Shown piece by piece: positions 27,790 to 62,982 of a DNA stretch of 64,000 nt. This DNA comes from Trueperaceae bacterium (lineage in GTDB: Bacteria; Deinococcota; Deinococci; Deinococcales; Trueperaceae). Location of the stretch: the NCBI GenBank assembly GCA_965213925.1, contig OZ243927.1:2624001-2688000 (forward strand). The letters are read 5' to 3'. Under the pieces are notes generated by a model. That model was given only the letters and a program-made list of their open reading frames with translations, ran no database searches and was not told the origin of the DNA. Each line of letters starts with the position of its first letter. Position 1 is the first letter of the stretch. The position numbers were made by a program, and so were the translations under genes.

Positions 27790-29492
<1,703 letters not shown>

Positions 29493-44974: not shown

Positions 44975-45002
44975 TTGCGTTTAACGCGCGCGTCTCTCGC
45001 AG
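44975..45002. repeat. 28-bp palindromic module-boundary site, copy A
   Basis: TTGCGTTTAAC GCGCGC GTCTCTCGCAG. Confidence 0.75.
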
Positions 45003-45199
45003 AAGAACGCTACACTTTCGAGCCTTTCCATTATTCCGCAGAGATCAAAGGAACCACAATCTATTGACCGTTCAGTACATATTGTCATAGAAGTTTACTG
45101 CACGAATAGGTCATTCCTCCCAAATTTCTCCTCCCAAATTTCTCCTCCGAAATCTGACGTGCGACAAGCGCTTATCTGTATTCTTACGGCTAAAGTTCT

Positions 45200-45320
45200 G
45201 AACGGACTCTTTCATCTCGTTATCGGGAAGCTCGAGCGCCACCCTCGTTTCGCGTTTGGTGTCGCTAAGAAGCGGTTCCAAATCCTTGAGTTCGGAGCCT
45301 GCCAAGACGCGCATGGTGTT
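45200..45320 (-). pseudogene. Short relic of a solute-binding/VWA-type protein downstream of the TelA-like gene
   Basis: RVLAGSELKDLEPLL resembles the start of such domains; the frame degenerates quickly. Confidence 0.35.
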
Positions 45321-45469
45321 TGTTTCCTATCCGCAGCTCGTTAAAAGTGATGTGAGCGCGAGAGTTAGAAAGAAGGCGTTGCACTGTATCTTCTGAAAGG
45401 ACAGGGAAAAGGGAGAGGCGGCAACGCTTTTTCTCCCTATCCCCCTTACCCTCATCTCTCTGTCAAACC

Positions 45470-46200
45470 TTAAAGCCTAAGTTCGTTATCCGCTGCGTTG
45501 TCTGGAACCTCGAGCGTCAAATCCGCTGTCGCCCCCGCCACCTGCTCATTGCGTACCCGGTCCAGATACGTCTTCGACTTGCCAATCTCCGCTTCGAGCG
45601 TGTCTACGGTTTGCTGCATCACGCCTAGAGCTGCCTGCTTGTATTCAGAAATCGCGTCCACCGCTGCGTAAACATTATTGAAAGCCTTCTGGAGTTGCTC
45701 GACATCCACGGTCGCTCCAGCCGCCTGCGTATGTACGCTCGAGGATTGCTTTCTCAAGAGCGCCGAGGTGGACGCGATGAGATTGCCTGTAGTCGCGTTA
45801 AGCGCGTCTATCTGGTCCAAGACGAGCTTCTGATTTGCCAGTCCCTGCGAGACCATGACCGCCGTGCGCAGCGCCGACACCGTCGTGGTCGAGGCGCGGT
45901 CCACACCCTTGATGAGTTCTAAGTTGTTCTTGCGGACCATGTCGAGCGCTAGATAGCCCTGAATAGAGACGGCGAGCTGCGTCTGTAAGTCCTGCACTTT
46001 CTGCCGCAAGTAAAAGAGCATCTCCTCTTCAACCACGCGGGCTTTTTCGGGCTCGGTGCGCTTGAGTTTGTCCGCACGTGCTAAGAGCGCTTCGTCCACT
46101 TTCCGCGCCAGATAGATATACGACTCCAACTTCTCCATCGCTTCCCACAAATTGACCTTCTCCTGCTCGATAGTCGCGTTGTCCTTGCGCAGCTCGTCTT
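45470..46200 (-). pseudogene. Toxic anion resistance protein (TelA-like), 5'-truncated
   Basis: QDELRKDNATIEQEK...NNLELIKGVDRASTTTVSALRTAV; fused abruptly to the RT gene at about 46200. Confidence 0.75.
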
Positions 46201-47941
46201 GCTGCCGGTTAAAAGGGTGTATCGCCTACTCTACCGGCCTGACCTCTACCTGCGCGCCTACGCCAAGCTCTACAAGAACGAAGGCGCACTGACACCAGGT
46301 GCCTCGGACGAAACCGTGGACGGGATGTCCCTAGCGAAAATTGATACCATCATCGAGGCGCTACGCCAAGAGCGGTATCGGTGGACGCCGGTACGACGCC
46401 GTTACATTCCCAAAAAGAATGGCAAGATGCGGCCTCTAGGGATGCCTTCCTGGTCGGACAAACTTCTTCAAGAAGTTATCCGCTCCATCCTGGAAGCCTA
46501 TTATGAACCGCGGTTCAGCGACCGTTCTCACGGCTTTCGACCGAAACGGGGATGCCACACAGCTTTGCGCAAAGTCACCCAAGAGGGTCGAGGTACAAAG
46601 TGGTTTATCGAGGGAGATATCTGCTCGTGTTTCGACAAGATTAACTTCGATGTCTTGTTGAACATCTTGCAGAAGAGCTTCCACGACAACCGCTTCCTGC
46701 GGCTTATCAAGGGGCTGCTCGAAGCTGGCTACCTGGAGAACTGGACCTTTCACCAGACCTACAGCGGTGTGCCGCAAGGGTCGATTGTCGGTCCAATCCT
46801 CACCAACCTGGTTCTGGACAGGCTGGACAAGTTTGTCGAGCACGAACTGATACCAGCTTACACACGCGGCGAACGCCGCAAGACCTACCCCCCGTATGTC
46901 GCCATCGCCAAAGCCGCTCACGACGCTCGGAAAGCAGGGAACTGGGAGACCGCGCGGCAACTGAGCCAGCAGGCCCAGACAATGCCGTCGCGCGACCCCG
47001 ATGACCCGAACTTCCGGCGATTGTGGTACCAAAGGTATGCCGATGACTTTCTGCTGGGGCTGAAAGGGCCAAAAGACGAGGCCGTGGCTATCAAGCAAGA
47101 GATTGCCGCCTTCTTACGCGACGAACTCAAGCTTGAGCTTAGCGAGGATAAGACCCTGCTGACCCACGCGCGCACGCAGAAAGCGCGTTTCCTGGGCTAT
47201 GAGGTCCACATTCTTCACGCTGACGATAAACACGACCACCGGGGACAACGCTGCATCAACGGCAGCGTCGGACTCCGGGTACCGTCGCACGTCATGAAAG
47301 CGCACTGCGCCAAGTACATGCGACGCGGCAAGCCCATTCACCTCCCACAAAGGCTCAGCAGCGATGCTTACAGCATCGTCAGCCAATATCAAGCGGAATA
47401 CCGCGGGGTCGTGCAGTATTACCGCATGGCCTACAACCTCCACACGCTGGGCCGACTCAAGCGCGTCACAGAACTCTCGCTAGTGAAAACGCTGGCGAAT
47501 AAGTTCAGGACGAGTTGCCAGAAAATCTATCGGCGCTACCGCACCACCATCGACCTCAAGGAGGGCAGCTATAAAGTCCTTCAAGTCAAAGTGGACCGTG
47601 GTCCTAAAAAGAAGCCACTCATCACCCACTTTGGCGGCATCCCGTTACGGTGGAACAAATGGGTAGCCTTGGACGACAACCAGAACAGTAAGATTTGGAA
47701 CGGGCGTAATGAAGTGGTGGACCGCCTTTTAGCGCAAAGCTGTGAGCTTTGTGGGTCGGTGGAGCACGTCGAAGTGCATCACGTCCGAAAACTGGCAGAC
47801 CTTGAACAAAGAGGGCGTAAGTCACGGCCCGAATGGATGCAAAGGATGTCGGCTCGCCGACGCAAGACGCTGGTGGTCTGCCTCACCTGCCACCAAGACA
47901 TCCATAAAGGGCACTACCACGGGAAAGGACTTTCATGTTGA
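46201..47941 (+). CDS. Group II intron reverse transcriptase/maturase with HNH domain; start lost
   Basis: RPLGMP, SHGFRP, EGDI..CFD, GVPQG, YADD; C-terminal CELCG...VEVHH...CLTCH. Confidence 0.93.
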
Positions 47942-47951
47942 GATTACTGGA

Positions 47952-48048
47952 GAGCCCCGTGACACGGAAAGCGGTCATGCGGGGTTCGGAGGGGGGATGT
48001 TGGAAAAGCGCTATCTTTGATAGGCAGCTCGCTGGCATCCTACCCTAC
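47952..48048 (+). ncRNA. Group II intron domains V-VI (3' end of the RT-encoding intron)
   Basis: GAGCCCCGTGAC-ACGGAAAGCG-GTCATGCGGGGTTC with AGC triad, followed by domain VI ending CCCTAC. Confidence 0.9.
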
Positions 48049-48103
48049 CGCACGCACGGCTCTTAGGGGGGAGGAAGGCAGCGATGTCTTCTTCCTACCC
48101 GAC
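48049..48103 (+). ncRNA. 3' half of domain V plus domain VI of a second (outer) group II intron
   Basis: CGCACGCACGGCTCTTAGGGGGGAGGAAGGCAGCGATGTCTTCTTCCTACCCGAC directly after the first intron end. Confidence 0.8.
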
Positions 48104-48176
48104 CTGTTGCACAGCGGCACATCGCTGAGCAACATATTTTATAGTGATTCGGATTACGTTCTCCTATACTCAGGTT

Positions 48177-49985
48177 ATGCCTCGCCTCATCGTCATCTCA
48201 TTTTTACTTTGTAGCTTTCTCGTGGGTTGCTCGAGCACCACGCCACTTTCACCACCAGGTGAAACGCCCCCTGTGACTGAGCCTAACCCAACTACCCCTA
48301 CCGAACCGACTTCACCTGAAACGCCCGCGCCCGAACCAACACCCACCACCCTTACGCCTGAAGAAGCTGACCGCATCGCCCTGACGCTCTGGCGCAACGA
48401 TGACCTCGGCAAACATCCCAAGGGCTCCTGCTCAGGCTGTCACGGCGCGGACTACTTTGATCTCGCCCGCATTGGCTCGGCGGATGAGGATATCGCTCGG
48501 CGAGCGGTGATCGACGGAGCGAGTCAACGAGAGGCGGACGCGCTTGTGCAAGCAGTCGGGCAGATGCGCCAAACGTACGGGCTAGTCGCAGACGACGCCC
48601 GCGCCTTTCGCCCCTTTCAACCGGGCGGCGAGGTGCTGCTGCCTAATCTTGACGACGCTGAGCACATCGTTTCGGTGGAGCGAGATATCGCTTTTGGTCA
48701 CCAGCTAGAAGCTCTCTTGCCAACCCTCTTCGGCGAACGTATCGCCTCACTAGCGGACGCAGAACGGGCGCGTGACGAACTCTTGGACCTCGCCCAAGGA
48801 GCTAACCAGGCGGGCGCGAACTCCCAGCGTATTCAACTTAGGGAGTTGCCTACCGGCATCACCTACCCACGCTGGTCAGCCGATCTGCACCACGGCGCAG
48901 ACGAGGGCACGCTCAACGATTGGCTTGCCGATGTCGCGCACGACGCCAAGCCGGAGCACCGCGAGGCGTGGTTGGGGCTGCAAGACGCCTACCTTGCAAC
49001 CCCTAGCGACGAGAACTTCTGGCGCATGTATCTCGCCGCTGAGGAGATGACCGCGACGCCCCTTTTCGGTGAGTGCACCATGACGGGGGGAAGGGCGCAT
49101 ATAGCCTGTGCGGACGTTAAGCGCTTTGCTCGAGAGAAATTCTTGAGCGCGTTGACGGGTCAGCACATGATGCGCTTAGAGGCGTCCGGGCGTGAGGGTT
49201 TTGCGGAGGGCGCACTAGCCTTTTCATACCTCGACACCGACCCCCGCTTCGACTTCATGAAGGAGCGTAAGAGCCGCACGCTTTTGCCCGCCAACCTCTG
49301 GGAAGTGGGCGACAAGGGGCGGAGCACCTTAGAAAATTCTCAGGCTGAGGGCAGTTTTCGCGAGAACTTAGCGAAGCTCGGCTATCCTGAGTTTGTGCAA
49401 GGCAGCATCGACCCCACACGCAGCGCGAGCCAGGAACAACATGAGTTACGCCTCGCCTGGTTCTGGTTAGGCTTCACCTTCGACCCCTCCTTTGCCCGTA
49501 TTCACAGCTCCAACGCCACCAAAGTGGGTGAGTATATGGTGGGAACGCTCCTCGATGAGCGGATGTTCATTCACAATACCTTTCACACCAACATGCGGCT
49601 GGTGACTAAGGGGTTTTTACCAGAAGCGAACAGAGAACAGGCAGGGCGCGAGCGCACTCTGGAACAGCTGCCCACCGTTTTTCGCATGAACTACGGTTAC
49701 TTTTGGGCTTACGGGCGCACGGTGCTCAATTGGCGGGAGAACAAAAAGCTTAACTTCGTTTACCCCGAAGACCTCAAAGCGGAGCAAGCCGACCTCTGGC
49801 ACCGCTTTACGGCGAACGGCTTTCGGATGAGCATGTTTCTTTACTTGGCGGCATTAGAAGAGGGCGCACCTAAAGACAGCGTTGCTTTTGACGCCCTAAC
49901 GACGCACTTTGAGACCTACGAACCTGAGCATCAAGAAGCAGACAATGCGCTGATGGCGCAGCTTAGGCGTAAGCTGGAGGAGTAG
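48177..49985 (+). CDS. Hypothetical lipoprotein with a single CxxCH heme-c motif
   Basis: LVGC lipobox, Pro/Thr linker, CSGCH. Confidence 0.7.
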   Translation: MPRLIVISFLLCSFLVGCSSTTPLSPPGETPPVTEPNPTTPTEPTSPETPAPEPTPTTLTPEEADRIALTLWRNDDLGKHPKGSCSGCHGADYFDLARIGSADEDIARRAVIDGASQREADALVQAVGQMRQTYGLVADDARAFRPFQPGGEVLLPNLDDAEHIVSVERDIAFGHQLEALLPTLFGERIASLADAERARDELLDLAQGANQAGANSQRIQLRELPTGITYPRWSADLHHGADEGTLNDWLADVAHDAKPEHREAWLGLQDAYLATPSDENFWRMYLAAEEMTATPLFGECTMTGGRAHIACADVKRFAREKFLSALTGQHMMRLEASGREGFAEGALAFSYLDTDPRFDFMKERKSRTLLPANLWEVGDKGRSTLENSQAEGSFRENLAKLGYPEFVQGSIDPTRSASQEQHELRLAWFWLGFTFDPSFARIHSSNATKVGEYMVGTLLDERMFIHNTFHTNMRLVTKGFLPEANREQAGRERTLEQLPTVFRMNYGYFWAYGRTVLNWRENKKLNFVYPEDLKAEQADLWHRFTANGFRMSMFLYLAALEEGAPKDSVAFDALTTHFETYEPEHQEADNALMAQLRRKLEE

Positions 49986-50062
49986 CAAGCTGTCGTCGCC
50001 TTGCTCAGCGCTTTTAGCCTGACCTTTATACAACAAACTAGGTCGAAACTTGCGTAAGCGCA

Positions 50063-50090
50063 ATGCAACAGACGCGCGCGTTCGTCGCAG
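50063..50090. repeat. 28-bp palindromic site, copy B
   Basis: ATGCAACAGAC GCGCGC GTTCGTCGCAG. Confidence 0.85.
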
Positions 50091-50227
50091 AAGCGCTGAA
50101 TCTGCTTCCACTTGTCTGTCAGCGTGTCTACAGTGTTCCCTTACGCCCCTCTGACATAGGCTTGCTAGGGTCACTTCAGCTACCGGTAGCTAGACTGACA
50201 CTCAATGACGCAGTGAGGAGAGGGTTT

Positions 50228-51859
50228 ATGCTACCTATAAAAGAGTTGTTATTCGCCAGCTTATTAGCGCTTACGGTTGGACAGGCACAAGAGACCGGAG
50301 GCGCTGAAACGGGCGGTGCCCAGGCATCAGGGCAGAGCGTTTCGGGCGTCGTCTACAACGATCTAAACGAGAACCGGCAGCGCGACGAAGGCGAAGCGGG
50401 GGTCGCAGGCGTGTCAGTCTCGAACGGGCTCGAGGTGGTGCAAACAGACGATAGCGGTCGCTATGAACTGTCCGCTCGTGACGAGATGATCATGTTCGTC
50501 ACCAAACCCGCTGGCTACATGGTCCCGGTGAACGAGGTGATGCTGCCGCAGTTCTACTACATCCACCAGCCTAACGGCACGCCCGAAGACTTAGACCTCG
50601 ACTTTGACGGCATCGAGCCGACAGGTCCGCTGCCTGACTCGGTAGACTTTCCGCTGCAAGCGTCCGAGCTGGATGAGTCGTTTGAGGCACTCGCCTTCGC
50701 CGACCCACAGCCCCGCGACGACACCGAACTCGACTACATCCGTGACGACGTAATTACGGAAATCGTTGGTACGGACGCCGCTTTCGGCATCACCGTCGGC
50801 GACATCATGTACGACGACCTGTCCCTGTTCGAGCGCTATAACGAAGTCGTTGCAGCGATCGGTATCCCCTTCTGGAACGTGCCGGGCAACCACGACCTGA
50901 ACTTCCAGTCCCCGGACGACGCTTACTCGCTCGAGACTTACAAGCGCATCTATGGACCCGCCTACTACTCGTTTGACTATGGGCAGGTGCACGTCGTGGT
51001 GATGGACAACGTCGAGTACTTCGGGGTGGAGGACGGCGAGTCGAGCGGCTACCGCGGCTACATCGGCGGAGCGCAGCTCTCTTGGCTCGAGAACGACCTG
51101 CGCTTCGTCCCGGAGGACAAGCTCATCGTCTTAGCCATGCACATCCCCCTGATCGACCAAGGGCGCGAAGACAGCGCCGGCGTCAACACCGCCGACCGCG
51201 AGGCGCTCTTCGAGGTCTTGGCGGGGCGCGAGCGGGTGCTCTCCATCTCGGGCCACGTCCACGCCAAGACCGAGCACAGTTACTTCGGCGAAGCAGACGG
51301 CTTTCAAGCGCCCAACCCGCTGCATCACATCACCCTGACGACCCTCTCGGGCGTCTGGTGGGGCGGGCCTGAGGACGAGCGCGGCATCCCCATCACCACC
51401 ACTCGTGACGGGCTGCCGAACGGTCATCACGTCCTCTCCTTTGAGGGCAACGCCTACCGCGAGCGGCTCAAGGGGGCGGGCGAAGCCGCCGACTATCAGA
51501 TGAACATCAGCGTCGCCCAGGCGCAGCAGGACGGCAACACCCTCGACCCCGCGCAGTGGTCCGGACCGCAAGTCGTCGCCAACGTCTTTAACGGCAGCGA
51601 GCTTTCCAGCGTCCGCTATCAGATCGACGGGAGCAAGATGCGGACGATGGAGCGCACCCTGCGCGGCGACCCCTACGTCAGCGAGCTGCAGGAGCGTTTC
51701 CCCGAGGAGATGCCCGGTCCTATCGACTCGTCGCACATCTGGACCGCACCCCTGCCGGACGACCTAGCGCCCGGCGTGCACCGGGTCCGCGTAGAAACGA
51801 CCGACCAGTACGCTCAGACCTTCCGGGCGACGCGCGTCTTCGAGGTCGCCGGGGAGTAG
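50228..51859 (+). CDS. Secreted calcineurin-like metallophosphoesterase
   Basis: Signal peptide; ADPQ, GDIMYD, PGNHD, HIP and SGHVH motifs. Confidence 0.9.
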   Translation: MLPIKELLFASLLALTVGQAQETGGAETGGAQASGQSVSGVVYNDLNENRQRDEGEAGVAGVSVSNGLEVVQTDDSGRYELSARDEMIMFVTKPAGYMVPVNEVMLPQFYYIHQPNGTPEDLDLDFDGIEPTGPLPDSVDFPLQASELDESFEALAFADPQPRDDTELDYIRDDVITEIVGTDAAFGITVGDIMYDDLSLFERYNEVVAAIGIPFWNVPGNHDLNFQSPDDAYSLETYKRIYGPAYYSFDYGQVHVVVMDNVEYFGVEDGESSGYRGYIGGAQLSWLENDLRFVPEDKLIVLAMHIPLIDQGREDSAGVNTADREALFEVLAGRERVLSISGHVHAKTEHSYFGEADGFQAPNPLHHITLTTLSGVWWGGPEDERGIPITTTRDGLPNGHHVLSFEGNAYRERLKGAGEAADYQMNISVAQAQQDGNTLDPAQWSGPQVVANVFNGSELSSVRYQIDGSKMRTMERTLRGDPYVSELQERFPEEMPGPIDSSHIWTAPLPDDLAPGVHRVRVETTDQYAQTFRATRVFEVAGE

Positions 51860-51891
51860 GGACAAACAGAGGCGTTCTGTCTGAATCAGGT

Positions 51892-51926
51892 GAACAGGAG
51901 CGGTCTACTATGAACCGCTCCTGTTC
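51892..51926. terminator. Hairpin after the phosphoesterase
   Basis: GAACAGGAGCGGT...ACCGCTCCTGTTC IR; no clear U-tract. Confidence 0.5.
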
Positions 51927-51978
51927 GCTCGGACTGAACATTTGTATAGAGGGGCACAGGAACGGAACCTATCTTTTT

Positions 51979-52006
51979 CTGCAACGAACGCGCGCGTTCG
52001 CCGCAG
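51979..52006. repeat. 28-bp palindromic site, copy C
   Basis: CTGCAACGAAC GCGCGC GTTCGCCGCAG. Confidence 0.9.
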
Positions 52007-52076
52007 AAGCTAACTGGGCTTTCCTACTACAAAACCCAGCTTATCTCTCGACTAACGCGATGACTTTCGGTGGCGA

Positions 52077-53471
52077 TCAAAGCGAAAAGAGTTGCCACCA
52101 GAACGCCCACGGCACGAACAGCATCGCCCCGCCCATCAAGAGGGCGAGCCAGACGCGCTCAACTCCCTGTACCGACTGCCGCCCCCGGTACCAGGTGGCT
52201 GTAAGTAGAACCGCCGTTAGCAAAAGTGCGAAAGCAAGAAGCTGGAGGAGGAACCAGCCGACTGGACGCCCTGCGATGACCGAGGTCACGCCTTCGCCGG
52301 ATGTCGCAGCGACATACCCCGTATAGGCGTACACGCCCCAAGGGGTGACTAGACCGAGCACAGTGAGAACCCAGGTACTCCACCTGCCTGGCATCCGCTG
52401 CGGCTTGGCGCGGCGAAGATACCTGACACCCGCTGCGACGAGGTACCCGCCAAAGACAAGCTGAAACAAGGCGAAGAAGGCGAGCTGCACCTGCCACCGG
52501 GCGAAGCCCTGCACATCCGTCACCGAAGGTCGGGTAGGGTGCCCGTCCGCTGGCGACGCGTCCAAGTGCGGTCCCGGTGGCGCGTCGGCGGTAACGTTCC
52601 GAAGCCATGAGGTCATCGTCTCGACGTAACCCGGGGCGAGCGCGCCGGTCACCTGGTCTTCAGCGACCGCGCTCGCGTCGTGGCTGGCGTCAGAAATAAA
52701 GCGCAGGACGTAGTGCCGATGACCTCCCCGCGCCAACGCTCGCCGCATAACACGGGCACTTTTGGCGGCAGGCATGACGCGATCCAGGGAACCCCAGAGG
52801 GCGAGGACAGGCTGACGGAGCTGCTCGAGAACGGGCGCGGGGTCGTATGTCCCTTCAGCAAAGAGCTCGGCCGAGATGAGGAAACGGTAGGTATGGTCCG
52901 CAAGAGCCCGCAGGCTCCCCTCTGAGGTGACGCCCTGCCGACGGAGCGCGCCCTCCGTCGCCCAAGCGCTCTGCTCTGCAGGCCCTACCCCCCCGCCTGC
53001 GACGGTGATCACGAACGCGATGTCGGTGGAGCGTGTGGCGGCTAGTGGCGCGACCCAGCCGCCTTCACTCAGACCCCACAAGCCGACCTGAGCGGGATTC
53101 ACCTCGTCACGCTGCTGCAGCATCTGCACGGCGGCGACAGCGTCGTCGGCTAGAAGAGAATACGAGCGGTCGCCTGCAGGGTTGGCGCTGTAGCCTTGGG
53201 TGCGCTTGTCGTAAAGCAGGGTGAGGAACCCCTCTCTTGCCAGGGCTTCAGCTACAGGGCGGTTCTCGTCACGCTTTCCAGGACCCGCCCCGTGAACGAG
53301 CACGACCGCCGGGACCCTGCCGCTCTGTTCGGGGATCAGCATTGTGCCGTGCAGCCTCACGTCACCGCTTTCGAAACTCAGCGCCTCTTCCGTCGCAGCC
53401 TGGGCGTGAGCGCCCGCCGCCGCAAGCCAGCAACTGAGGAGCAGCAACATCGTGAACACACAAAAGCGCAT
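52077..53471 (-). CDS. Alpha/beta hydrolase with signal peptide and C-terminal TM helices
   Basis: VHGAG, YDKR, GLSEGG nucleophile elbow. Confidence 0.85.
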   Translation of the reverse strand: MRFCVFTMLLLLSCWLAAAGAHAQAATEEALSFESGDVRLHGTMLIPEQSGRVPAVVLVHGAGPGKRDENRPVAEALAREGFLTLLYDKRTQGYSANPAGDRSYSLLADDAVAAVQMLQQRDEVNPAQVGLWGLSEGGWVAPLAATRSTDIAFVITVAGGGVGPAEQSAWATEGALRRQGVTSEGSLRALADHTYRFLISAELFAEGTYDPAPVLEQLRQPVLALWGSLDRVMPAAKSARVMRRALARGGHRHYVLRFISDASHDASAVAEDQVTGALAPGYVETMTSWLRNVTADAPPGPHLDASPADGHPTRPSVTDVQGFARWQVQLAFFALFQLVFGGYLVAAGVRYLRRAKPQRMPGRWSTWVLTVLGLVTPWGVYAYTGYVAATSGEGVTSVIAGRPVGWFLLQLLAFALLLTAVLLTATWYRGRQSVQGVERVWLALLMGGAMLFVPWAFWWQLFSL

Positions 53472-54985: not shown

Positions 54986-55425
54986 AGAAAAGTGCCGTCC
55001 TCCAGCGCGGTAAGCATGTTTTGAAGCTTGCTGACCCCGACGCGCGTAGCCAGCAAGTCGATAGGTCTAGCTCCGTCTAGGGCAGCCTTAGGGCTCCCGA
55101 ACCAAGCTTTCGCCCCCTCCTGTCCGAGAATGCTCGCGACCCGTGCAAACAGGGTAAGCGCACTGTAGGTACGGTCTAAAAGCTCGACGCTCATATCTGG
55201 GTTCTTACTCTTGCGCGAGCGGCTGATGCCGAGCACAGCGAGTGCTTCGGTTTTGCTGATATCAAGCAGGGAAGTCAAACGTCTTAGAACCTGCTCGAGG
55301 GAGGACTCGCCAACGACAGTTTGCTTGAGCACGGCCTCAGCTACCTCGTTCGGCGTAGTGTCGAGTACCTGTTCAAACAGTGCCTCGCGGGTAGAAGCAA
55401 AGGAAGTCTGTATCACGTTCAACAT
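54982..55425 (-). CDS. Xre/MbcA/ParS-type antitoxin
   Basis: AWFGSPKAALDGARPIDLL...LEDGTF C-terminus; overlaps the RES toxin. Confidence 0.88.
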   Translation of the reverse strand: MLNVIQTSFASTREALFEQVLDTTPNEVAEAVLKQTVVGESSLEQVLRRLTSLLDISKTEALAVLGISRSRKSKNPDMSVELLDRTYSALTLFARVASILGQEGAKAWFGSPKAALDGARPIDLLATRVGVSKLQNMLTALEDGTFL

Positions 55426-55454
55426 AGTAGCATGAAACTTCAACGTTTAGCGCT

Positions 55455-55482
55455 CTGCAGGAGTTGCGCGCAACCGCCGCAG
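55455..55482. repeat. 28-bp palindromic site, copy F
   Basis: CTGCAGGAGTT GCGCGC AACCGCCGCAG. Confidence 0.85.
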
Positions 55483-55657
55483 AAGGTTCTACGCGAACTA
55501 CTACTTCTATTAACTTGCGCTCCCTGCTCCACACCTCCTTTAACACAGGCGAGCCGTAGAGGTGCATGGTCGGCGATCACTAGGCTACCGAAGCTCTGCG
55601 AATTGCGCTTAAGCGTTAAAATGTCTTTACCTTAAAGAGCACAGAAAGGGCAGCGCT

Positions 55658-57082
55658 ATGAAGATTCGGTGGTTATATTCTATATTCGGTGTGCCCCTGG
55701 TCGTTCTCCTCTTGGGTGCCTTTGGCATCTCTCTTCAGGCGGGCTCAGAAACCGCAAATCCGCAAGCCCCGAACACTAAGCACGATCTGGGACGCGGCGT
55801 CAACTTCGGCAATGCGCTCGAGGCTCCGAGCGAAGGGCTCTGGGGTCTGACGCTCAAGTCAGCCTACTTCGAGGTGGTTAAGCGCGCGGGCTTCGACACG
55901 GTGCGACTCCCCGTCAGTTGGACACACCACGCCGCAACGACTTCGCCCTACGCCATCGATCCGGACTTTTTTAGGCGCGTCGACTGGGCGGTGGACGAGG
56001 CGCTGAAACGAGGCCTCAACATCATTATCAACATGCACCACTACGACGCGCTCAATTCGAACCCGCGCGAGGAGGGGGGGCGCTACCTCGCGCTCTGGCG
56101 GCAGATCGCCGAGCGCTACAAACACGAGAACGCCCTTGTCTATTTCGAGCTGCTCAACGAACCCCACGAGCAGTTCAACCGCGAACCCGAACTGTGGAAC
56201 GACTTGCTCGCGAAAGCGGTCGAGGTCGTGCGCGAGAGCAACCCGACGCGCCCGCTCATCATCGGTCCGGTAGGTTGGAACACGACCTCACGCTTGGACG
56301 AGCTCACGCTGCCCGACGACTCTAACCTCATCGCTACGATTCACTTCTACGAGCCCTTCGAGTTTACCCATCAGGGCGCGGCCTGGGTGACAACGCCGCC
56401 GCCTGCGGGGGTGAGTTGGACGGGCGAAGAGAGGATGCTGGTCTGGGACGATTGGTCTTGGGATACCCGCGTAAGGTGGCGCGCCTCCGAAGGGGACCAG
56501 CCAGCGCTCATGCTGACCTTCGAGAAACCCTGGGCAGGCTTCAAGCTCCACCCGGCTAAACCCGAAGAGGGCTACGACACCCTACATCTACGTGCTAACG
56601 GCGCTTTGGAGCTTCTCATTGGTTGTGAGCACGGGCTCCGGACGATTGTCACGCGCGTCGGCTGGCACGACTACTTGGTCGACTTAAGCACCTGCGAGGA
56701 GATAGGCAACCTTGTCATCCAGAACGCCAGCGATCAAGCGCCCGCCTCCATCTACATCCAGACATTAGAGCTTCGCGGCAGGAACGGCGAGCTTCCCCTC
56801 ATTATGACGAGCAAGGACGTGCTGAGAGAAACGCTCGACAGGGCAGCGGGTTGGGCTGCGGCGCGAGACATCCCTCTTCTACTAGGCGAATTCGGCGCGT
56901 ACAGCGTGGCGGACATGAGCTCGAGGGTGCGCTGGACGCGCTTCGTACGTGAGGAAGCAGAGCGTCGCGGCTTCGCCTGGGCCTACTGGGAGTTCGGAGC
57001 GGGTTACGGCGTTTACAGCCCTGAAACGGACCAGTGGCGCACGCGTCTGCTAGAAGCGTTGTTACCCCGCCTGACGCGCTAA
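55658..57082 (+). CDS. Glycoside hydrolase family 5 (endoglucanase-like)
   Basis: RGVNFGNALE, VRLPV, ELLNEP, HFYEP, GEFG, WAYW. Confidence 0.93.
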   Translation: MKIRWLYSIFGVPLVVLLLGAFGISLQAGSETANPQAPNTKHDLGRGVNFGNALEAPSEGLWGLTLKSAYFEVVKRAGFDTVRLPVSWTHHAATTSPYAIDPDFFRRVDWAVDEALKRGLNIIINMHHYDALNSNPREEGGRYLALWRQIAERYKHENALVYFELLNEPHEQFNREPELWNDLLAKAVEVVRESNPTRPLIIGPVGWNTTSRLDELTLPDDSNLIATIHFYEPFEFTHQGAAWVTTPPPAGVSWTGEERMLVWDDWSWDTRVRWRASEGDQPALMLTFEKPWAGFKLHPAKPEEGYDTLHLRANGALELLIGCEHGLRTIVTRVGWHDYLVDLSTCEEIGNLVIQNASDQAPASIYIQTLELRGRNGELPLIMTSKDVLRETLDRAAGWAAARDIPLLLGEFGAYSVADMSSRVRWTRFVREEAERRGFAWAYWEFGAGYGVYSPETDQWRTRLLEALLPRLTR

Positions 57083-57106
57083 AGCTAGGCAAGAGTCTTG
57101 TGCCTT

Positions 57107-57134
57107 GTGCAACGAACGCGCGCGTTCGCCGCCT
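57107..57134. repeat. 28-bp palindromic site, copy G
   Basis: GTGCAACGAAC GCGCGC GTTCGCCGCCT. Confidence 0.85.
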
Positions 57135-57313
57135 AAAACTTGGGTCACCCTCGGTCCGTAGTTCAACCTAAAACCTCTTGCCGAAATGGACGTCAAGGAG
57201 AGTTCGGAGGGCGGCGCAGATTATTTGCCGCGCGGAGAAAAGAAGCGGCGTCACAGGGTGTAAGCCCAAAGAACATAGGAGCATTCACAGCCTTGAACGC
57301 TTGCACTGTCGGT

Positions 57314-58291
57314 TCAGCCTTTCTCGAGGACCCAGTCGAGGAGCGCCTCCAAGTTTGCTGTTGCTAAACCGACGACCCGGTCAGCGCCTCCGTAGTAGAG
57401 GTAAATTGCCCCGTTTACGACGGGATTACCTGTGCCGAAGACTACAAAGGGTACGTCGCCCTTGATCTCCCACATTTCTTTGGGCGCTAGAATAGGCGCT
57501 TCGGGCCGCTTGAGCACCTTACGAGGATCATCTCGGTCAAGTAGGGCGGCCCCCATACAGTAGATATGATGTTCGTTGTAGCCGTGATAGAGCACGAGCC
57601 AACCCACTTCAGTGAGAATAGGGGGACCCCCCGCACCAACACGTTTGCCGTCCCAAAGACCAGGGCGCGGCGTTAGGATTTCCGCGTGCTCACGCCAGCT
57701 TTTCATGTCATGACTTGACGCCAGCCAAATGCTGGGGGGGCGGCGGTGAAAGGTGACGAATTTGCCGCCCACCTTAGCGGGAAAGAGCGCGTGGTCCTTG
57801 TTGTCTTCACCTTCGACCACTGGCCCTAAAGTTTCCCAAGTGATGAGGTTGTCGCTCACAGCGTACATAGGGGTGATCCCTGAAGGAGGTGCGCCGACCG
57901 GCGCATGAAATCCCTTGCGACTATAGGCGGTGTAGGCCATGTAGAAGCGCCCCTCTAATTCGGTGACGCGGGGGTCTTCTACCCCCCTCGCATCCCGCTC
58001 CGAGCTTGGCGCTAGAACGGAGTGTCGCAACCGGTTCCAGGTCACGCCGTCCGAGGACACGGCGTAACCGATACGGGAAACGTAGTCGAGTCCTTGCGCC
58101 CGGTAGTGCATGTGAAAGAGGCCGTTATAATAGATTACCGAGGGATTAAAGGTATTGAGCGCTTCCCAAGGGTGGATAGGCTCGGGTCTCAAGACGGGGT
58201 TGGCGGGATGGCGCTGGAAATGACCACTTTCGGCTAGATGGTAGAAATCAGAGACTGAGTTTAGATTGGCTGAGGCGGGGTTAGAGGTCAT
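57314..58291 (-). CDS. GH130-family glycosidase/phosphorylase
   Basis: NPVL, FNPS, YRAQ, EDPRV, NKD, YYGGAD. Confidence 0.88.
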   Translation of the reverse strand: MTSNPASANLNSVSDFYHLAESGHFQRHPANPVLRPEPIHPWEALNTFNPSVIYYNGLFHMHYRAQGLDYVSRIGYAVSSDGVTWNRLRHSVLAPSSERDARGVEDPRVTELEGRFYMAYTAYSRKGFHAPVGAPPSGITPMYAVSDNLITWETLGPVVEGEDNKDHALFPAKVGGKFVTFHRRPPSIWLASSHDMKSWREHAEILTPRPGLWDGKRVGAGGPPILTEVGWLVLYHGYNEHHIYCMGAALLDRDDPRKVLKRPEAPILAPKEMWEIKGDVPFVVFGTGNPVVNGAIYLYYGGADRVVGLATANLEALLDWVLEKG

Positions 58292-58483
58292 AAGGGCTCC
58301 AGAAAGGTAGGATGAGGTCGGTAGCTACTATGTTGGCGCACATAGCGGATGCGCAGGCGACTTAATATGGGAGCTGCACGACCTAATTGTAACGACTTTT
58401 TAGCAACACGCCTTTTCTGAAGTTTGAATCGACTATGCTTGACCTTTACGTCAAGAACCAGGTTGAGGAATACATAAGACATT

Positions 58484-58498
58484 CTGCAACGAACGCGC
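58484..58498. repeat. Truncated site, copy H (left arm plus GCGC)
   Basis: CTGCAACGAAC GCGC, identical to the copy C left arm; right arm absent. Confidence 0.7.
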
Positions 58499-58907
58499 TG
58501 AAAATACGTGCGAATGAGGCCAAGCCAGCCTAAAGGATGCCGACAAGGTCTACTAAACGTAAGAAATAACGGATGAAAATTCATATTCTACAGACGTATA
58601 ACCGAGTCGCACCTGCGACTCGGTTATACGTGTAGTTGCTTACCTTACCCGAGCGGATACGAGTACCAATGGACGCTCTCACTGTGCCAACGACAGATGC
58701 AAATGCTGCCTGTATTAGGTCGTGTGCGGCTTGGACGAGCTGCACAGCACGCCCTCGGTCACCGAGCTTACAAACGGCGATCCAACCCGCGCCGCCCGTG
58801 CGTCCCCACGCTGAGGTCAACGTACCCTTCTATTCCTAAGATAGCTTTTAGGGTAGCTAGAGAGTTAGCGAAGAGAACGTTTAAGAAGCCCAAGACGTAA
58901 AGAAAGC

Positions 58908-59875
58908 CTACTGCGCGAACTGCGCTGGATAATGTACCTTAAAGACCGTCTCGAACGAGCTGAAGAGGTCTAAGTACTGCTCCATGTAGCGCGTCAAGAG
59001 GAAGTTCTCCCGCACGCTCTCCCTAGCCTTCTTGCCCATCGTCTCGCGCAGTTCTTCGTCTTTGAGGAGTTGCACCAGCCGCGCCGCCGCCTCGTCTACG
59101 GACGAGACCAAAAAGCCGTTCTCCCCGTCCTGAATCTGCTTCGTGATGCCGCCTACTCTGCCGCCGATCACCGGCGTCTCCTTCCACATCGCCTCGGTCA
59201 CGGTACGGTAAGCCCGAAGCCCTCCCGGATAGACTTCTGCATGACCACAGCGGCGCGGCGCTGCAAGGTGTTGACCAAAGTGGTGTCGTCGCCACAGGGC
59301 AAGATGAGGATGCGCTCTTCCTGTTGGCTTTTGATCGACTCGTAGATTTCGGTGCCTTCGGGGTCGTCCGAGGCGAAGTTGCCAAGAAGGACGAGCGTCG
59401 CGTCCACCTCTTGGCGTGCCTTCTTGAACGCTTCGATAACACCGACGGGGTCCTTCCAGGGGTCGAAGCGCGAGACCTGCACGACGAGCGGGAGGTCGGT
59501 GGGGATGTCGTAATGTGCTAAGCGCTCGTCCATCTCCTCGTCTGTGAGCGTGATGTTCTTGCGGCTGAAGGGGTCGATGGCGGGCATGAAGAAGACTTGG
59601 GGGGTCTCCAAGTCCTGCTTGTACGCCTCTAAGCTTATGATGATCGCGTCGTAACGTTCCACGAAGGGCGTGAGGTAGCGCCACAGCGCGGGGTTAGGAT
59701 TCGAGAGGTCGATGTGGCAGCGCCAAATCCAGGGGCGGTGCTTGTCGAAGTGGGTGATGAGCGGCAAGGGCTGTGGGTCGTGGACGATGACCAGGTCCGA
59801 GTTGAGGTTACTGCGCACCGCGTTTTCATAGACCACTTGTTCAAAGGTGTGCTGCTTGATGTCGTTCAGCAAATT
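58908..59875 (-). pseudogene. TreT-like GT4 glycosyltransferase, 5'-truncated and frameshifted
   Basis: HDPQP, WRCHID, QVSRFDPWK, EGFGLT|VTEAMWK; 5-bp ACGGT duplication at 59200-59209. Confidence 0.85.
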
Positions 59876-60277
59876 CGCTTTATCGCGCTGTCCATGCACG
59901 AAAAGCCCGAGTACGTTCAGGGCTTTTTAGAAGCGGGCGGGTCAGGCTACGTGCCTAAAAGTGCCGTCGAGACGCAGCTTTTAGATGCGATCGCTGCCGT
60001 ATCACGGGGTGAATACTACGCGCCTGCCAAGCTCCTAGCCGACCTCGCCAAGGAGATGGCGGGACTCGATCCCTACCGCAACGTAAAACTCACCCACAGA
60101 GAGCTAGAGGTCGTCGAGCACATTGCGCACGGGCGAACCCATAAGGAGATCGCCTCGGTTATCGGCATCAGCGAGAAGACGGTCGCGACCTACCGCGAGC
60201 GGGCGGCGGAGAAGCTGGGCTTAAAAACGCGAGCTGAACTCGTGAGGTGGGCGTTAGAGCAGAACATGCTGAGCTGA
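59872..60277 (+). pseudogene. NarL/LuxR response regulator, N-terminus missing
   Basis: IALSMH...GYVPK...LTHRELEV...ISEKTVATYR; upstream sequence is the antisense of the glycosyltransferase. Confidence 0.82.
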
Positions 60278-61118
60278 GGGTCGTCTGACCGTTACAGAGC
60301 GAGAGAATAGGGCACAACGACGCGCCCGGTCCTACGTTTAGCGAGGTCTTCTTTTTTGTTCTCCGCGAGGCCCCACCTCATTCTATCCGCCCCTCTGTAG
60401 GACTTTCTTCCACACCCTCTGTAGGAACAGCGCGGACTTCTTGTCGGTGACGCGCTTTATAAGCTTAGGAGTTACGCGGTTGACTTCAAGTTGTACCAAG
60501 GCTTGGCAAGGTAGTCGTGGATAGCATCACGGACGATATTGTACTTGGCTTGAGGTTCTCCGCATTAAGCGTGCTCGAGTGACGGTATCTTAGCGGAGTG
60601 TTTGGAAAAACTTGCTCGGCTATAAGTTGAGGTTCATACTGAGCTGTGAATCAACTTTTCTCCCTACCGCACTGCGTTACCAAAGAAGTTTACTCAGATA
60701 AAGGCAGCTTTCGCGTGGTTGCTCGTAGCAATCATGAGTGCTTTGTCCTGATTGCGAACGGGTAAGCGACCGGGTTCATAGCCGATATATTCGTGCGCCT
60801 CGTGACCTTCCGCTATGTACACAAGCCGTTCGTCTCCATTTATATGTCCGACGTTTCCGTTGTTTGAACGCCTCATGCGGCAGGTAGACCTTTGCCGAGC
60901 TGCTCCCGCCTCGTGCCAGACGAACTTCTCGACTCATACGGATTCCGTTTAATTCCCTATCACCGAGGCTTTTTCTCGGTGATAGTCCATACACTCCATC
61001 CGTTTCGCGGAGGCGAAAACTACGTAAATCCTTATTCCTATTCGCTACACTCAGATTGATTCGCTATGTTAGCGAATCAATCGGAATCCGTATCACAGAG
61101 GCATAACACGAGGTCGGT

Positions 61119-61760
61119 TTAGCCACGGACGTCGAAATCATAGAGATGCATAAAGGCGTCGAAGCCTTCTCTCACCACCTGTAAGGGATCGTCGAGCATC
61201 TCCAGCCGCGTAGACAGTGCCGCGAGCTGGGCGTAGCGAACGGCAAGGGACTCCGCGTTCGCACCGAGCGTGGTCAGCTCTTCGCTATACGCTGCTAAGT
61301 TCTGCTGAAGCGTGTTGTTCTGCTTAGTCGTCTGTTGATAAAGCACGCGTGTGTGTAGAAGATTACTGAGCCGCAGCAAAAGCTCCTCTGGATCGATGGG
61401 GCGAGACAAGAAGTCGTTCACGCCGGCCTCGAGCGCACGCTGTTTAAGGGAGTCGCGGGTATCTGAGGTGACCATAAGGATTGGCAAGAAGCATTCAGGT
61501 CCTTGCTGTTGCCGGAGCGATATAGTCATCTCTAAACCGTCTTGTCTGGGCATGTGATAGTCAGTAATAACAGCATCGGGTTGACATGCAGTCGTGAAGG
61601 TTAGTACCGACTCCGCATCCATAACGGTTGACACCCGCTGGAAACCCTGCTTGTTAAGGTGAGCCTTGAGCAGGGCTAGATTAGCTAGACTGTCGTCGAC
61701 CAGCAAGATATGACTTTCGAAAATTTTGGTGCGCCGCTCTTTAGTGATCCAAGAATTCAT
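61119..61760 (-). CDS. Response-regulator receiver protein, possibly truncated
   Basis: ILLVDD, TDYHMPRQDG, AGVNDFLSRP, then a coiled coil. Confidence 0.75.
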   Translation of the reverse strand: MNSWITKERRTKIFESHILLVDDSLANLALLKAHLNKQGFQRVSTVMDAESVLTFTTACQPDAVITDYHMPRQDGLEMTISLRQQQGPECFLPILMVTSDTRDSLKQRALEAGVNDFLSRPIDPEELLLRLSNLLHTRVLYQQTTKQNNTLQQNLAAYSEELTTLGANAESLAVRYAQLAALSTRLEMLDDPLQVVREGFDAFMHLYDFDVRG

Positions 61761-62039
61761 GAAGTGTACCCCTAGTGCCCTTTCAGAGCGAGGCTAACCA
61801 CTATGTTGCGCTGCTTTCTATAAAAAGTTAAACATGCTTCTATTGTTAGAAAGTTTATAGCGATTGAGAGTGGTTTTTTTGTAACTCGCGCATAACGACT
61901 AGACGGTATCGCGAGCACCGTTCTTTCAGTTGCTGCAGCTTACGAAGGATCACCCTATCGTCCGCAAAATCTCTTGCTTTAATGACCTTCATAGGAGGTA
62001 GCACGATGTTGGGCAATTTAGCGGTAGAAGCCGAACCTT

Positions 62040-62067
62040 CTGTGCGAGTTGCGCGCGTTCGCTGCAC
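62040..62067. repeat. 28-bp palindromic site, copy I
   Basis: CTGTGCGAGTT GCGCGC GTTCGCTGCAC. Confidence 0.82.
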
Positions 62068-62074
62068 AGCAGTG

Positions 62075-62503
62075 CTACGCGTTAGGCGGGTGCCAGCCCA
62101 CCTCAATCCAGAGCCGCCTCGCTTGCACCAGGGCCTCACGGTTGAGCGTTAAGGCTTCAACTGTTGCCCTGCCGCTCGCTGTCTTACCCGCAATATTCAG
62201 CCCTGTCTCCACCCACTCGAAGTGCTCACGCCATACTTGTTGGCGCGGATGATAGAGCGGGACGAGCTGAGCTGTGTTCGGGTCGGTCGCGGCGACCCGC
62301 TGCCCCTTAGCGAGGTTGCAGTCCCAGCAGGCGAGGCAGAGGTTCGCGGTATCGCTGCTGCCTCCGAGAACCTCTGGGATGATGTGATCCACCATAAAGC
62401 GCATCCCTGCTACCGCTTCCTGGGTTTGACAATAGGCGCAGCGGAAGTTGAAATGCGCCGCCACTTCGCGACGTAGAGCGAGGGATAGCTTGGTTTTCGA
62501 CAC
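62075..62503 (-). CDS. HNH endonuclease
   Basis: CAYC...VDHIIP...GG...NLCLACWDCN..K. Confidence 0.92.
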   Translation of the reverse strand: MSKTKLSLALRREVAAHFNFRCAYCQTQEAVAGMRFMVDHIIPEVLGGSSDTANLCLACWDCNLAKGQRVAATDPNTAQLVPLYHPRQQVWREHFEWVETGLNIAGKTASGRATVEALTLNREALVQARRLWIEVGWHPPNA

Positions 62504-62512
62504 CTATTGAGG

Positions 62513-62908
62513 TTAAGAAGAGGTGAGCAGGCTGTCGACCTCGTGCCCCCGGCGCTTAAGTAGCGCTGCCGCTTCAGCCCGCAAGCGCATCACCTGTTGG
62601 GCGTAGCGCTGTAAGCGCAGCGCTTCGGTAGCTTCCTCGGGCGTGAGACCTTCGCGCTGCCGCCGTTCGACGAGCGCCTGCATCCGTTCGCTCTGCTCGT
62701 CTGCGACACGCTGCTTGGCAACTTGCCACAGTTGAGCGTCGTCTAAAACAGTGAGTTGCTCGAGCTGAACGTCGTTGGGCGTCTCGACCGCGAGCGCTGC
62801 TTCGAGGAGGGCGCGCGCTTCCTCCTCCAAAGAGCGGGCATGGGCGGTTGCGCGCGCTTCTAAAGCAACTTGCGCGTCGGGCGAGAGTTGGAGTTCGAGG
62901 GCGTCCAC
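62513..62908 (-). CDS. Small antitoxin-like protein upstream of the HNH gene
   Basis: ALEARATAHARSLEEEARALL (FitA/RHH-like); 9 bp from the HNH start. Confidence 0.6.
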   Translation of the reverse strand: MDALELQLSPDAQVALEARATAHARSLEEEARALLEAALAVETPNDVQLEQLTVLDDAQLWQVAKQRVADEQSERMQALVERRQREGLTPEEATEALRLQRYAQQVMRLRAEAAALLKRRGHEVDSLLTSS

Positions 62909-62954
62909 AGCTCTAGTTTAGCACGGTGCAAATCTCAAAACTGGCATAAACCTT

Positions 62955-62982
62955 CTGCGCGAGTTGCGCGCGTCTCACGCAC
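62955..62982. repeat. 28-bp palindromic site, copy J
   Basis: CTGCGCGAGTT GCGCGC GTCTCACGCAC. Confidence 0.82.

Follow-up and report, generated by a model that had tools for sequence, protein, structure and literature searches.

Module arrays bounded by a symmetric 32-bp site, together with a dedicated Xer-like recombinase, point to an undescribed gene-shuffling system in Trueperaceae

Introduction

Why does the same short, symmetric sequence recur between one gene and the next along some 18 kb of bacterial DNA? The question is raised by a 64,000-nucleotide stretch of a Trueperaceae bacterium (assembly GCA_965213925.1, contig OZ243927.1, positions 2,624,001 to 2,688,000; the whole stretch is called the window below and is numbered from 1), the right-hand part of which carries repeated copies of a site centred on GCGCGC. 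Analysis of this region revealed an array of about 18 kb assembled from one- to three-gene blocks parted by copies of a symmetric 32-base site. Comparison with related DNA leads us to regard these 32-bp elements as the probable recombination sites of a dedicated, lineage-specific tyrosine recombinase of the Xer family, in a system that would resemble the pdif modules of Acinetobacter and would use one universal palindromic spacer. To our knowledge, only two systems are well known for building arrays of small gene units by site-specific recombination, namely integrons and, more recently, the dif modules of Acinetobacter. The site array and its dedicated Xer-like recombinase point to a gene-shuffling system that is undescribed.

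Copies of a 32-bp site separate genes in the window

A search of the window with the motif TGCRNNNRWYGCGCGCRWYNNNYGCA, allowing up to three mismatches, returned nine matches (seven exact and two with one mismatch), all within 44976-62981, against 0.64 expected; the maximum in shuffled sequence was three, and none of 100 shuffles reached nine. All nine full copies listed in the initial annotation of this DNA are therefore present, and its statement that 1-44 kb is free of copies agrees with the same search, which gave no match there. Reading the nine copies together defines a repeat unit of 32 bp, TT-S-TGCR-NNN-RWY-GCGCGC-RWY-NNN-YGCA-S-AA, in which TT precedes and AA succeeds the inner 28 bp in the majority of copies; the arm and core geometry described earlier for a 28-bp unit stands, and the conserved unit is longer by these flanks. 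The core reads GCGCGC in nine of nine copies, as had been claimed, and these cores account for nine of the 25 GCGCGC hexamers in the window. The inner triplet is AAC, GAC or GTT, chosen independently on each side of a site, and in the copies at 54470, 62040 and 62955 the inner triplets are not self-complementary. A pattern taken from the earlier description of the arms, GCAS-GCGCGC-STGC, gave four matches against 3.6 expected and was dropped.

An open reading frame (ORF) map combined with Pfam searches showed that, from 50.0 to 57.1 kb, a single site lies at each edge of units of one or two genes, and that a further pair of sites brackets the HNH and ribbon-helix-helix (RHH) genes. The rule of one site per unit boundary was thus upheld over 50.0-57.1 kb, as was the occurrence of sites between convergent, divergent and tandem neighbours. 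Intergenic placement was also confirmed, the sole copy touched by an ORF being that at 50063, which is reached only by the longest-ORF 5' extension of the phosphoesterase gene. Two further copies had been described as partial: the one at 48104 is a genuine right half-site, whereas that at 58484 is better described as a decayed or truncated copy. The names 'heme lipoprotein' (48144-49985) and 'HEAT-like' (53749-54297) did not hold, as Pfam gave no match for either protein. The parts of the array are listed here with their strand where one applies; contig_8 is a 783-kb contig from a metagenome-assembled genome (MAG) labelled Trueperaceae.

44975..45002, site 1 (TTGCGTTTAAC-GCGCGC-GTCTCTCGCAG), exact motif match at the left end of the array
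45003..48103, debris module with a TelA C-terminal fragment and a 5'-truncated group II intron (Pfam, Rfam, sequence)
45470-46150, minus strand, TelA fragment covering profile positions 127-332 only (Pfam)
46199-47941, group II intron reverse transcriptase/maturase ORF (Pfam RVT_1, Intron_maturas2, HNH)
47950-48048, group II intron domains V-VI (Rfam RF00029, 46 bits)
48104..48114, right half-site (CTGTTGCACAG), left arm and core lost (aligns with the right arm of the intact contig_8 39265 site)
48115..50062, plus strand, module encoding a 613-residue protein of no Pfam family, ORF 48144-49985 (contig_8 homology)
50063..50090, site 2 (motif match)
50091..51978, plus strand, module encoding a calcineurin-like metallophosphoesterase (Pfam MetallophosC/N)
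51979..52006, site 3, the most nearly palindromic copy (motif match; full hairpin)
52007..53664, minus strand, module encoding an alpha/beta hydrolase, gene 52077-53543 (Pfam)
53665..53692, site 4 (motif match)
53693..54469, minus strand, module encoding a 182-residue protein of no Pfam family, gene 53749-54297 (Pfam search)
54470..54497, site 5, inner triplets GAC / AAC (motif match)
54498..55454, minus strand, module encoding a RES toxin (54533-54985) and an Xre/MbcA-type antitoxin (54982-55443) (Pfam)
55455..55482, site 6 (motif match)
55483..57106, plus strand, module encoding a GH5 cellulase-family glycosidase, gene 55658-57082 (Pfam)
57107..57134, site 7, one mismatch (GCC for GCA) (motif match)
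57135..58483, minus strand, module encoding a GH130 mannoside phosphorylase family protein, gene 57314-58291 (Pfam)
58484..58511, decayed or truncated site with a good left arm CTGCAACGAAC and GCGC, then divergent
58512..62039, composite stretch lacking an intact site, with a GT1 fragment, a LuxR-type regulator, a response regulator and small ORFs (Pfam)
62040..62067, site 8, one mismatch, inner triplets GTT / GTT (motif match)
62068..62954, minus strand, module encoding an HNH endonuclease (62075-62503) and an RHH FitA-like protein (62513-62908) (Pfam)
62955..62982, site 9 (motif match)

The sites cluster in Trueperaceae-labelled genomes

A scan of 185,579 species genomes (596 Gb), a collection that does not include the window, with a pattern that fits seven of the nine window copies revealed 49 loci. 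Twenty-four came from five contigs of Trueperaceae-labelled MAGs (14 on contig_8, seven on the 4.5 Mb chromosome OZ243956.1 and one on each of three others), and only there was the motif clustered. The other 25 comprised 19 singletons in unrelated taxa and six copies of one orthologous Alcaligenaceae MAG locus; because this number is near the chance expectation for such a pattern in 596 Gb, we treated them as chance matches. The six orthologous loci (L003, L025, L026, L029, L033 and L044) are in MAGs labelled Alcaligenaceae or 'Bordetella parapertussis' and carry one perfect match, found on both strands, with one copy per locus and conserved flanks whose scattered substitutions look coding-like. 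This match is probably fortuitous and probably lies in coding sequence.

A relaxed scan of the fetched Trueperaceae loci, which cover parts of the MAG genomes, found 53 sites. Contig_8 has 33 sites between 1.7 and 124 kb, typically spaced 0.5-6 kb apart, and three more at 735-740 kb, and OZ243956 has 13 sites in small groups at six places, frequently as pairs 1-2 kb apart. Combining the window with the fetched DNA and accepting up to two mismatches per site gave a set of 58 sites, 54 of which are intergenic by admittedly crude ORF calls, although ORFs occupy 84% of the DNA. Among the four others, one overlaps only short, probably spurious ORFs, and at least two (30684 and 45733) overlap the final few codons of a gene. 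By gene context, 27 sites are tandem, 22 convergent and nine divergent.

These distributions bear on two alternative explanations that an even scatter of the motif or a fixed distance from promoters would have favored. Contrary to the scatter expected of repetitive extragenic palindromic (REP) sequences, the motif in the scan of species genomes clusters, as arrays or small groups, only in Trueperaceae-labelled MAGs. Likewise, the fixed distance from promoters that would be expected of the operators of a dimeric transcription factor governing a regulon of accessory genes was not found. The operator explanation has some appeal, since dimeric DNA-binding proteins typically have symmetric half-sites, TetR, MarR or LysR regulators are encoded in many modules, and the recombinase gene described below does have a site at a constant upstream distance. 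Nevertheless, over a third of the sites (22/58) separate convergent gene ends and 27/58 are in tandem contexts, and operators would leave unexplained why, on either side of a transferred block, homology stops at the core.

Two observations concern the surroundings of individual sites. The loci OZ243956 1116567-1119753 (L038) and OZ243913 1634969-1644360 (L028) have about 2 kb of conserved genes in common (65-75% at the protein level), and beside these genes the islands that carry sites differ between the two chromosomes, hinting at a hotspot of repeated insertion. At OZ243956 140044-140257 and 141113-141329 (L024), the tails of two consecutive modules, each about 200 bp, are 81% alike and each runs into a site, a pattern that reads as a tandem duplication of a module tail together with its site.

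An invariant core is flanked by independent arms

A position table of the 58 sites revealed the layout of conserved arm, GCGCGC and conserved arm with TT/AA flanks, in the 11-6-11 geometry of pdif-type sites. Core positions are identical in 56-58 of the 58 sites, making the core the most invariant part, whereas arm positions vary; GCGCGC is the spacer in 55 sites, and the three exceptions are all the same variant, GTGCGC twice and its complement GCGCAC once (contig_8 38719). Left and right arms follow one consensus and draw on the same set of inner hexamers. At their variable positions, however, the two arms of one site are no more alike than shuffled pairs (likeness 0.505 compared to 0.482 +/- 0.028; 455 of 2000 shuffles reach the observed value), and no signal was found for matching arms across a module, whether as terminal inverted repeats or as a target duplication (0.505 compared to 0.496 and 0.488 compared to 0.483). 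Similarly, of five window sites tested for single-stranded folding, only that at 51979 forms a full hairpin, the other four folding no better than shuffles. Because the arms are independent and most sites do not fold, no stem appears to be maintained, which argues against REP, terminator and attC explanations; the data fit two protein-binding half-sites on duplex DNA.

In particular, the elements might have been bidirectional intrinsic terminators, or folded single-strand sites like the attC sites of an integron or of a cluster of attC sites lacking integron integrases (CALIN). A palindromic, GC-rich centre, TT/AA flanks, a position at gene ends and a cassette-like layout are all features that such elements could show. 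Yet the sites lack a T-run and compensatory pairing, the orientation of the genes is mixed, and the recombinase scores far below the integron integrase cut-off (117 compared to 265 bits). In addition, attC sites are 57-141 nt long, compared to 32 bp here. Hairpin, terminator and attC explanations were rejected on the lack of arm-to-arm complementarity beyond the consensus and the failure of four of the five sites to fold, and we consider terminators or attC-like sites most improbable.

The pattern of conservation is also the reverse of that usual for operators, in which the centre is not the invariant part and the arms the variable one; it is what would be expected of the overlap region of a tyrosine recombinase that acts on matching partners. 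Together with the gene contexts described above, this makes a regulon of operators very unlikely. Recombination of pdif sites is reported to need identical spacers in the two partner sites (PMC13141974), and the invariance of the core agrees with such a need.

Transferred blocks end at the sites

Comparison of modules between genomes and loci revealed where exchanged DNA begins and ends. The RES-Xre module of the window (54469-55485) is 97.5% identical over 1017 bp to contig_8 735590-736606, with both ends in sites and unrelated flanks, and the proteins are 100% and 98% identical. The module encoding the 613-residue protein (48104-50094) matches contig_8 39283-41269 at 85.5% nucleotide and 89% amino acid identity, again with different neighbours. 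There, homology between the half-site at 48104 and the contig_8 39265 site begins 2 bp past the core position, and alignment to the right arm of the latter indicates that 48104 is the right arm of a formerly complete site.

Duplicates within genomes showed similar ends. A 1108-bp duplicate on contig_8 (44641-45748 and 98538-99645, 99.9% identical) and an 881-bp inverted duplicate on OZ243956 (1109930-1110810 and 2015813-2014933, 99.7%) each have one end exactly at the outer edge of GCGCGC, so that the inner arm and core are common to the copies and the outer arm differs. At its other end, the 881-bp duplicate has a site with a mutated core, GGCCCG, in both copies, and the outer arms again differ. 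Over the six site-bounded ends that could be scored, inner arms differ at 0, 3, 1, 0, 4 and 0 of 10 positions and outer arms at 3, 3, 4, 6, 8 and 5 of 10. The inner arm counts as unchanged, with a differing outer arm, at four of the six ends, and in three of these four the core is unchanged as well. The proposal that module boundaries in relatives would coincide with the site is thus mostly borne out. More broadly, of six high-identity repeats found in different contexts, five end in a site on one side or both. The remaining one, a 900-bp repeat (OZ243956 135778-136677 and 1102054-1101155), has no site boundaries and resembles a copy of an insertion sequence (IS), its two overlapping ORFs looking in translation like an IS transposase.

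The variant cores provide one further example. The two GTGCGC sites are direct repeats bracketing the contig_8 RES-Xre module (735592 and 736577, or 5080 and 6065 of locus L045), whereas in the window this module lies between two GCGCGC sites. In this single instance, the direct-repeat pair would be the pattern expected from an integrated circle.

Exchange at these positions could also have come about if the sites were REP-like intergenic repeats of structural or regulatory function, with blocks swapped by homologous or microhomology-mediated recombination after gene transfer and no dedicated recombinase. The repeats are indeed short palindromes between genes, homology-driven exchange would likewise favor breakpoints within the longest run of identity, and some breakpoints lie outside the core. 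However, RecA-type recombination normally needs far more than six to ten bp of identity. Furthermore, the arms show no complementarity beyond the consensus, a hairpin forms in only one of five sites, and the sites in the fetched loci are clustered rather than dispersed. Finally, a Xer paralogue is tied to the sites, and no Y1 transposase (RAYT) domain was found among the 214 ORFs scanned. We consider REP-like repeats quite unlikely.

A Xer-like recombinase gene is itself a site-flanked module

Pfam scans of 69 window ORFs and 145 contig_8 ORFs (214 in total) revealed ordinary IS transposases and two tyrosine recombinases, an integrase of the type found in integrative and conjugative elements (ICE) at 5522-6703 of the window and a 316-residue ORF at contig_8 85787-86737; no serine recombinase matched among these ORFs. 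The contig_8 recombinase gene shares a 1.9 kb block, delimited by the sites at 84799 and 86698, with a RES-Xre pair. The gene recurs at three further places with 77-80% nucleotide identity, giving four genes in three MAGs. The further blocks are:

OZ243956 2006345-2008379, recombinase block with a RES-Xre partner
OZ243956 4053346-4055490, recombinase block with a YhcG/DUF1016-type nuclease partner
CAWCXJ6 736537 to about 738700, recombinase block with a YhcG/DUF1016-type nuclease partner

All four copies are inside site-flanked modules of about 2 kb, with a site about 70 nt upstream of the start codon that is decayed in CAWCXJ6. Between this upstream site and the recombinase start, just 5' of the latter, all four copies carry an invariant 30-nt leader, AACCTCCGTGCAGACTACAGCTCGGAGGTT (L043:12070-12125, minus strand; L013, L036 and L049). 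The leader AACCTCCGTGCAGACTACAGCTCGGAGGTT forms a hairpin that pairs GGAGG, the ribosome-binding site, with an upstream CCTCC (-18.5 kcal/mol, z = -2.8), which suggests translational control of the recombinase. Given a site in the promoter region and a sequestered ribosome-binding site, recombinase expression is probably low and controlled.

The protein is about 296 residues long and contains a Phage_integrase domain (3e-36, Pfam), homologues having a SAM-like N-terminal domain and a catalytic domain (PF13495/PF02899 and PF00589). Three of the four locus copies, and the homologues P0011, P0002 and P0014, show the motifs GCRVSE, GKGNKER, HVLRH and LGH..TTQLY, whose R, K, H-x-x-R, H and Y residues presumably have the same roles as in XerD. 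Scores against NCBIfam profiles are below every cut-off (XerC 209/335, XerD 203/330 and XerA 194/220 bits), and the integron integrase profiles TIGR02249 (117 bits, cut-off 265) and NF011946 (72, cut-off 435) indicate that the protein is not IntI. Its best solved relative is E. coli XerD (1a0p, 6e-35), and the structures of XerA and XerH also align with it. The 42 clusters that score best in the protein collection show 71-93% identity and are mostly 296 residues long, followed by relatives of about 52-59% identity and 280 residues that include proteins from Alicyclobacillus, Sulfobacillus and a Bacilli MAG. In the plasmid collection, 51 records contain a relative, none reaching 60% identity and the matches listed reaching about 44% at most, indicating that no close plasmid-borne system is present there.

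Consistent with the earlier statement that no cognate recombinase is evident in the window, tblastn found no copy there, returning only the ICE integrase at 23% identity. P0011 is a full-length member of the family, 87% identical to the recombinase, and the window's genome probably encodes the recombinase elsewhere. The further suggestion that symmetric arms imply a single recombinase fits a Xer-family paralogue carried inside site-flanked modules of relatives.

It is conceivable that the same modules are moved by a housekeeping Xer protein of the host or by another recombinase, with the Xer paralogue as mere cargo, for example the resolvase of an element that brought it in. Such a division would have a precedent in the pdif modules of Acinetobacter, which are reported to use the host XerC/D and to carry no recombinase (PMC13141974). 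Moreover, the recombinase copy next to the largest array is truncated, and the window has none. On the other hand, all four paralogue copies in the sampled DNA are within site-flanked modules, with the site at a conserved upstream distance, one consensus for both arms suits a homodimer better than a XerC/XerD pair, and a full-length paralogue is probably present in the window's genome. We therefore regard a host enzyme as unlikely, and infer that the recombinase itself, rather than host XerC/D or another enzyme, binds and cuts the sites.

Other features of the window

In the debris module next to the left edge of the array, the TelA fragment directly abuts the group II intron, leaving no room for intron domains I-III, and the intron is therefore 5'-truncated. 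Insertion of the intron into the site at 48104 was ruled out, because the intron lacks its 5' domains and some 55 nt separate its 3' end from the half-site; 48103/48104 is thus not where the intron inserted. Farther right in the array, about 80 nt beyond the decayed site at 58484-58511, a perfect inverted repeat of 18 bp with 2 bp between its halves (ACGTATAACCGAGTCGCA / TGCGACTCGGTTATACGT) occupies 58594-58631.

To the left of the array, the window is of another kind and comprises two segments. The first, at 1-22 kb (1-22700), is ICE-like. It encodes pieces of a type I restriction R subunit, an HTH_37/Gp49 pair, the tyrosine integrase at 5522-6703, transposases of the IS3 type and the IS110 family, a split YhcG nuclease, an ArdC-like protein, ParB, SSB and a TraG/T4 coupling protein. 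The second, at 23-44 kb, contains urease, glutamine synthetase III and polyamine transport genes. Among named relatives, those closest to the urease protein include Trueperaceae MAGs at 80-82% identity and one MAG labelled 'Chloroflexi' at 82%, which, together with where the sites occur, favors Trueperaceae as the likely origin of the window. This urease, glutamine synthetase and transporter region is free of GCGCGC sites and carries another intergenic inverted-repeat family, unrelated to them, with GGACTGAG units (for example AAGGACTGAGGACTGAG ... CTCAGTCCTCAGTCCTT) at 26249-26297, 30329-30398 and 40589-40642. A match to the Rfam family 5_ureB_sRNA (RF02514, 112 bits) at 29055-29350 on the plus strand lies antisense inside the urease alpha gene and may reflect only conservation of the coding sequence.

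Discussion

We propose that a homodimer of the recombinase would bind the two arms of each site (about 11-13 bp, with an outer TGCR box and an inner RWY triplet), that two sites would synapse, and that strands would be exchanged at the edges of GCGCGC with a 6-bp overlap. Cleavage would then flank GCGCGC, and circles would be the intermediates. Because the palindromic overlap and the symmetric arm consensus are the same everywhere, the sites would have little polarity and any two could react, in either alignment, and the outcomes would be excision of a one-site circle, integration at any other site, and inversion. Each event would join an arm of one site to an arm of another, which would account for the lack of relation between the arms of one site and for the kept inner and changed outer arms at four of six ends. 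The expected result would be a mosaic of one- to three-gene modules (enzymes, regulators and toxin-antitoxin pairs) with single sites between them. The recombinase gene would form its own module of about 2 kb, held by a RES-Xre toxin-antitoxin pair or a YhcG-type nuclease, and, since this gene is itself a module, its product would act in trans on modules such as those of the window.

Several observations weigh against recombination by this enzyme at the core. A 1068-bp duplicate on contig_8 (55383-56450 and 735595-734528) is 100% identical, yet its inner arms differ at 4 of 10 positions at one end; at the other end the duplicated DNA stops 2 bp short of the core, and the second copy has no site there. 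Similarly, the right inner arm of the RES-Xre module has 3 differences in 10 positions despite 97.5% identity over the module, and a strict crossover in the core predicts neither of these two cases. On contig_8, the 1108-bp duplicate at 44.6/98.5 kb has its left end outside any site, and recombination that follows the longest shared identity would likewise place crossovers in an invariant core. As for the enzyme, the contig_8 copy lacks its C-terminus, including the tyrosine, so that the largest array stands beside a dead copy, and the recombinase was found in loci picked for holding sites, which makes its association with them something other than an unbiased genome-wide count. That recombination takes place is itself a reading of comparative anatomy. 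The breaks 2 bp outside or 6 bp after the core, and the changed inner arms, could result from branch migration before resolution, from aberrant events or from another cleavage geometry. Overall, the view of the locus as a platform for cassette capture and shuffling, proposed in the initial annotation, is supported, having withstood comparison with even scatter, promoter distance and module boundaries in relatives.

Comparison with known systems showed the closest likeness to the pdif modules of Acinetobacter. Both have an arm, 6-bp spacer and arm of about 11-6-11, both comprise small modules of one to three genes that are bounded by sites, cut at sites and found in different contexts, and in both toxin-antitoxin modules are frequent (RES-Xre in Trueperaceae) and spacer identity serves as the rule for partners. 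Toxin-antitoxin modules described as common in Acinetobacter pdif arrays include higBA, among others (PMC13141974); in the same source the movement of dif modules is also said to be still debated. In contrast to Acinetobacter, in which XerC and XerD arms give an alternation of C and D modules and many spacers restrict partners, the Trueperaceae arms share one consensus that forces no alternation, and the spacer is one palindrome in 55/58 sites. A dedicated, module-borne Xer paralogue also sets the Trueperaceae system apart. Finally, the Acinetobacter modules are on small Rep_3 plasmids, whereas the Trueperaceae arrays are on multi-Mb contigs, with at least 33 sites, in a different phylum (Deinococcota-labelled MAGs).

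Like integrons and CALIN, the Trueperaceae arrays consist of small gene units with one site each, are associated with a tyrosine recombinase of the Xer-related branch and can contain many toxin-antitoxin cassettes. Unlike them, they have neither IntI nor a folded attC, their units carry their own regulators and point either way, and there is no fixed attI/Pc platform or anchored integrase, the recombinase gene itself being flanked by sites. XerH/difH, XerS/difSL and archaeal XerA/dif resemble the Trueperaceae system in that one Xer-family protein is presumed to act on both arms of a near-palindromic site. However, these use one chromosomal site for dimer resolution, whereas tens of sites per genome bound accessory genes in Trueperaceae, where the recombinase gene is multi-copy and mobile. 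Shufflons (Rci/sfx and invertible hsdS loci) likewise combine one tyrosine recombinase with many short repeats per region and with rearrangement in both orientations, but their segments are inverted within one coding region to vary a protein, whereas the Trueperaceae units are whole genes with regulators that recur across genomes and loci. Within the published literature covered by titles and abstracts, with subscription journals outside that coverage, papers on pdif, integrons and Xer were found, and none on such sites in Trueperaceae or Deinococcota.

We regard as evenly balanced the broader proposition that this is a third independent bacterial cassette system, in which the Xer-like recombinase, acting as a homodimer, would be encoded on a self-mobile cassette that a toxin-antitoxin pair or nuclease keeps in place, with its ribosome-binding site in a conserved hairpin, and would mobilise in trans all blocks lying between copies of a universal 32-bp site without polarity, giving rise to chromosomal mosaics of more than 100 kb in Trueperaceae and to spread between species. 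If true, such a system, with a single recombinase, a single symmetric site and one spacer common to all sites, would be simpler than any version so far, and modular gene shuffling would have arisen outside Proteobacteria. One protein and one 32-bp site would also provide a tractable model for module excision, integration and inversion, and the pair might be of use as a compact recombinase and site for genome engineering. For the organisms themselves, such a system would explain part of the mosaic of the accessory genome in Trueperaceae, an environmentally widespread and poorly studied family.

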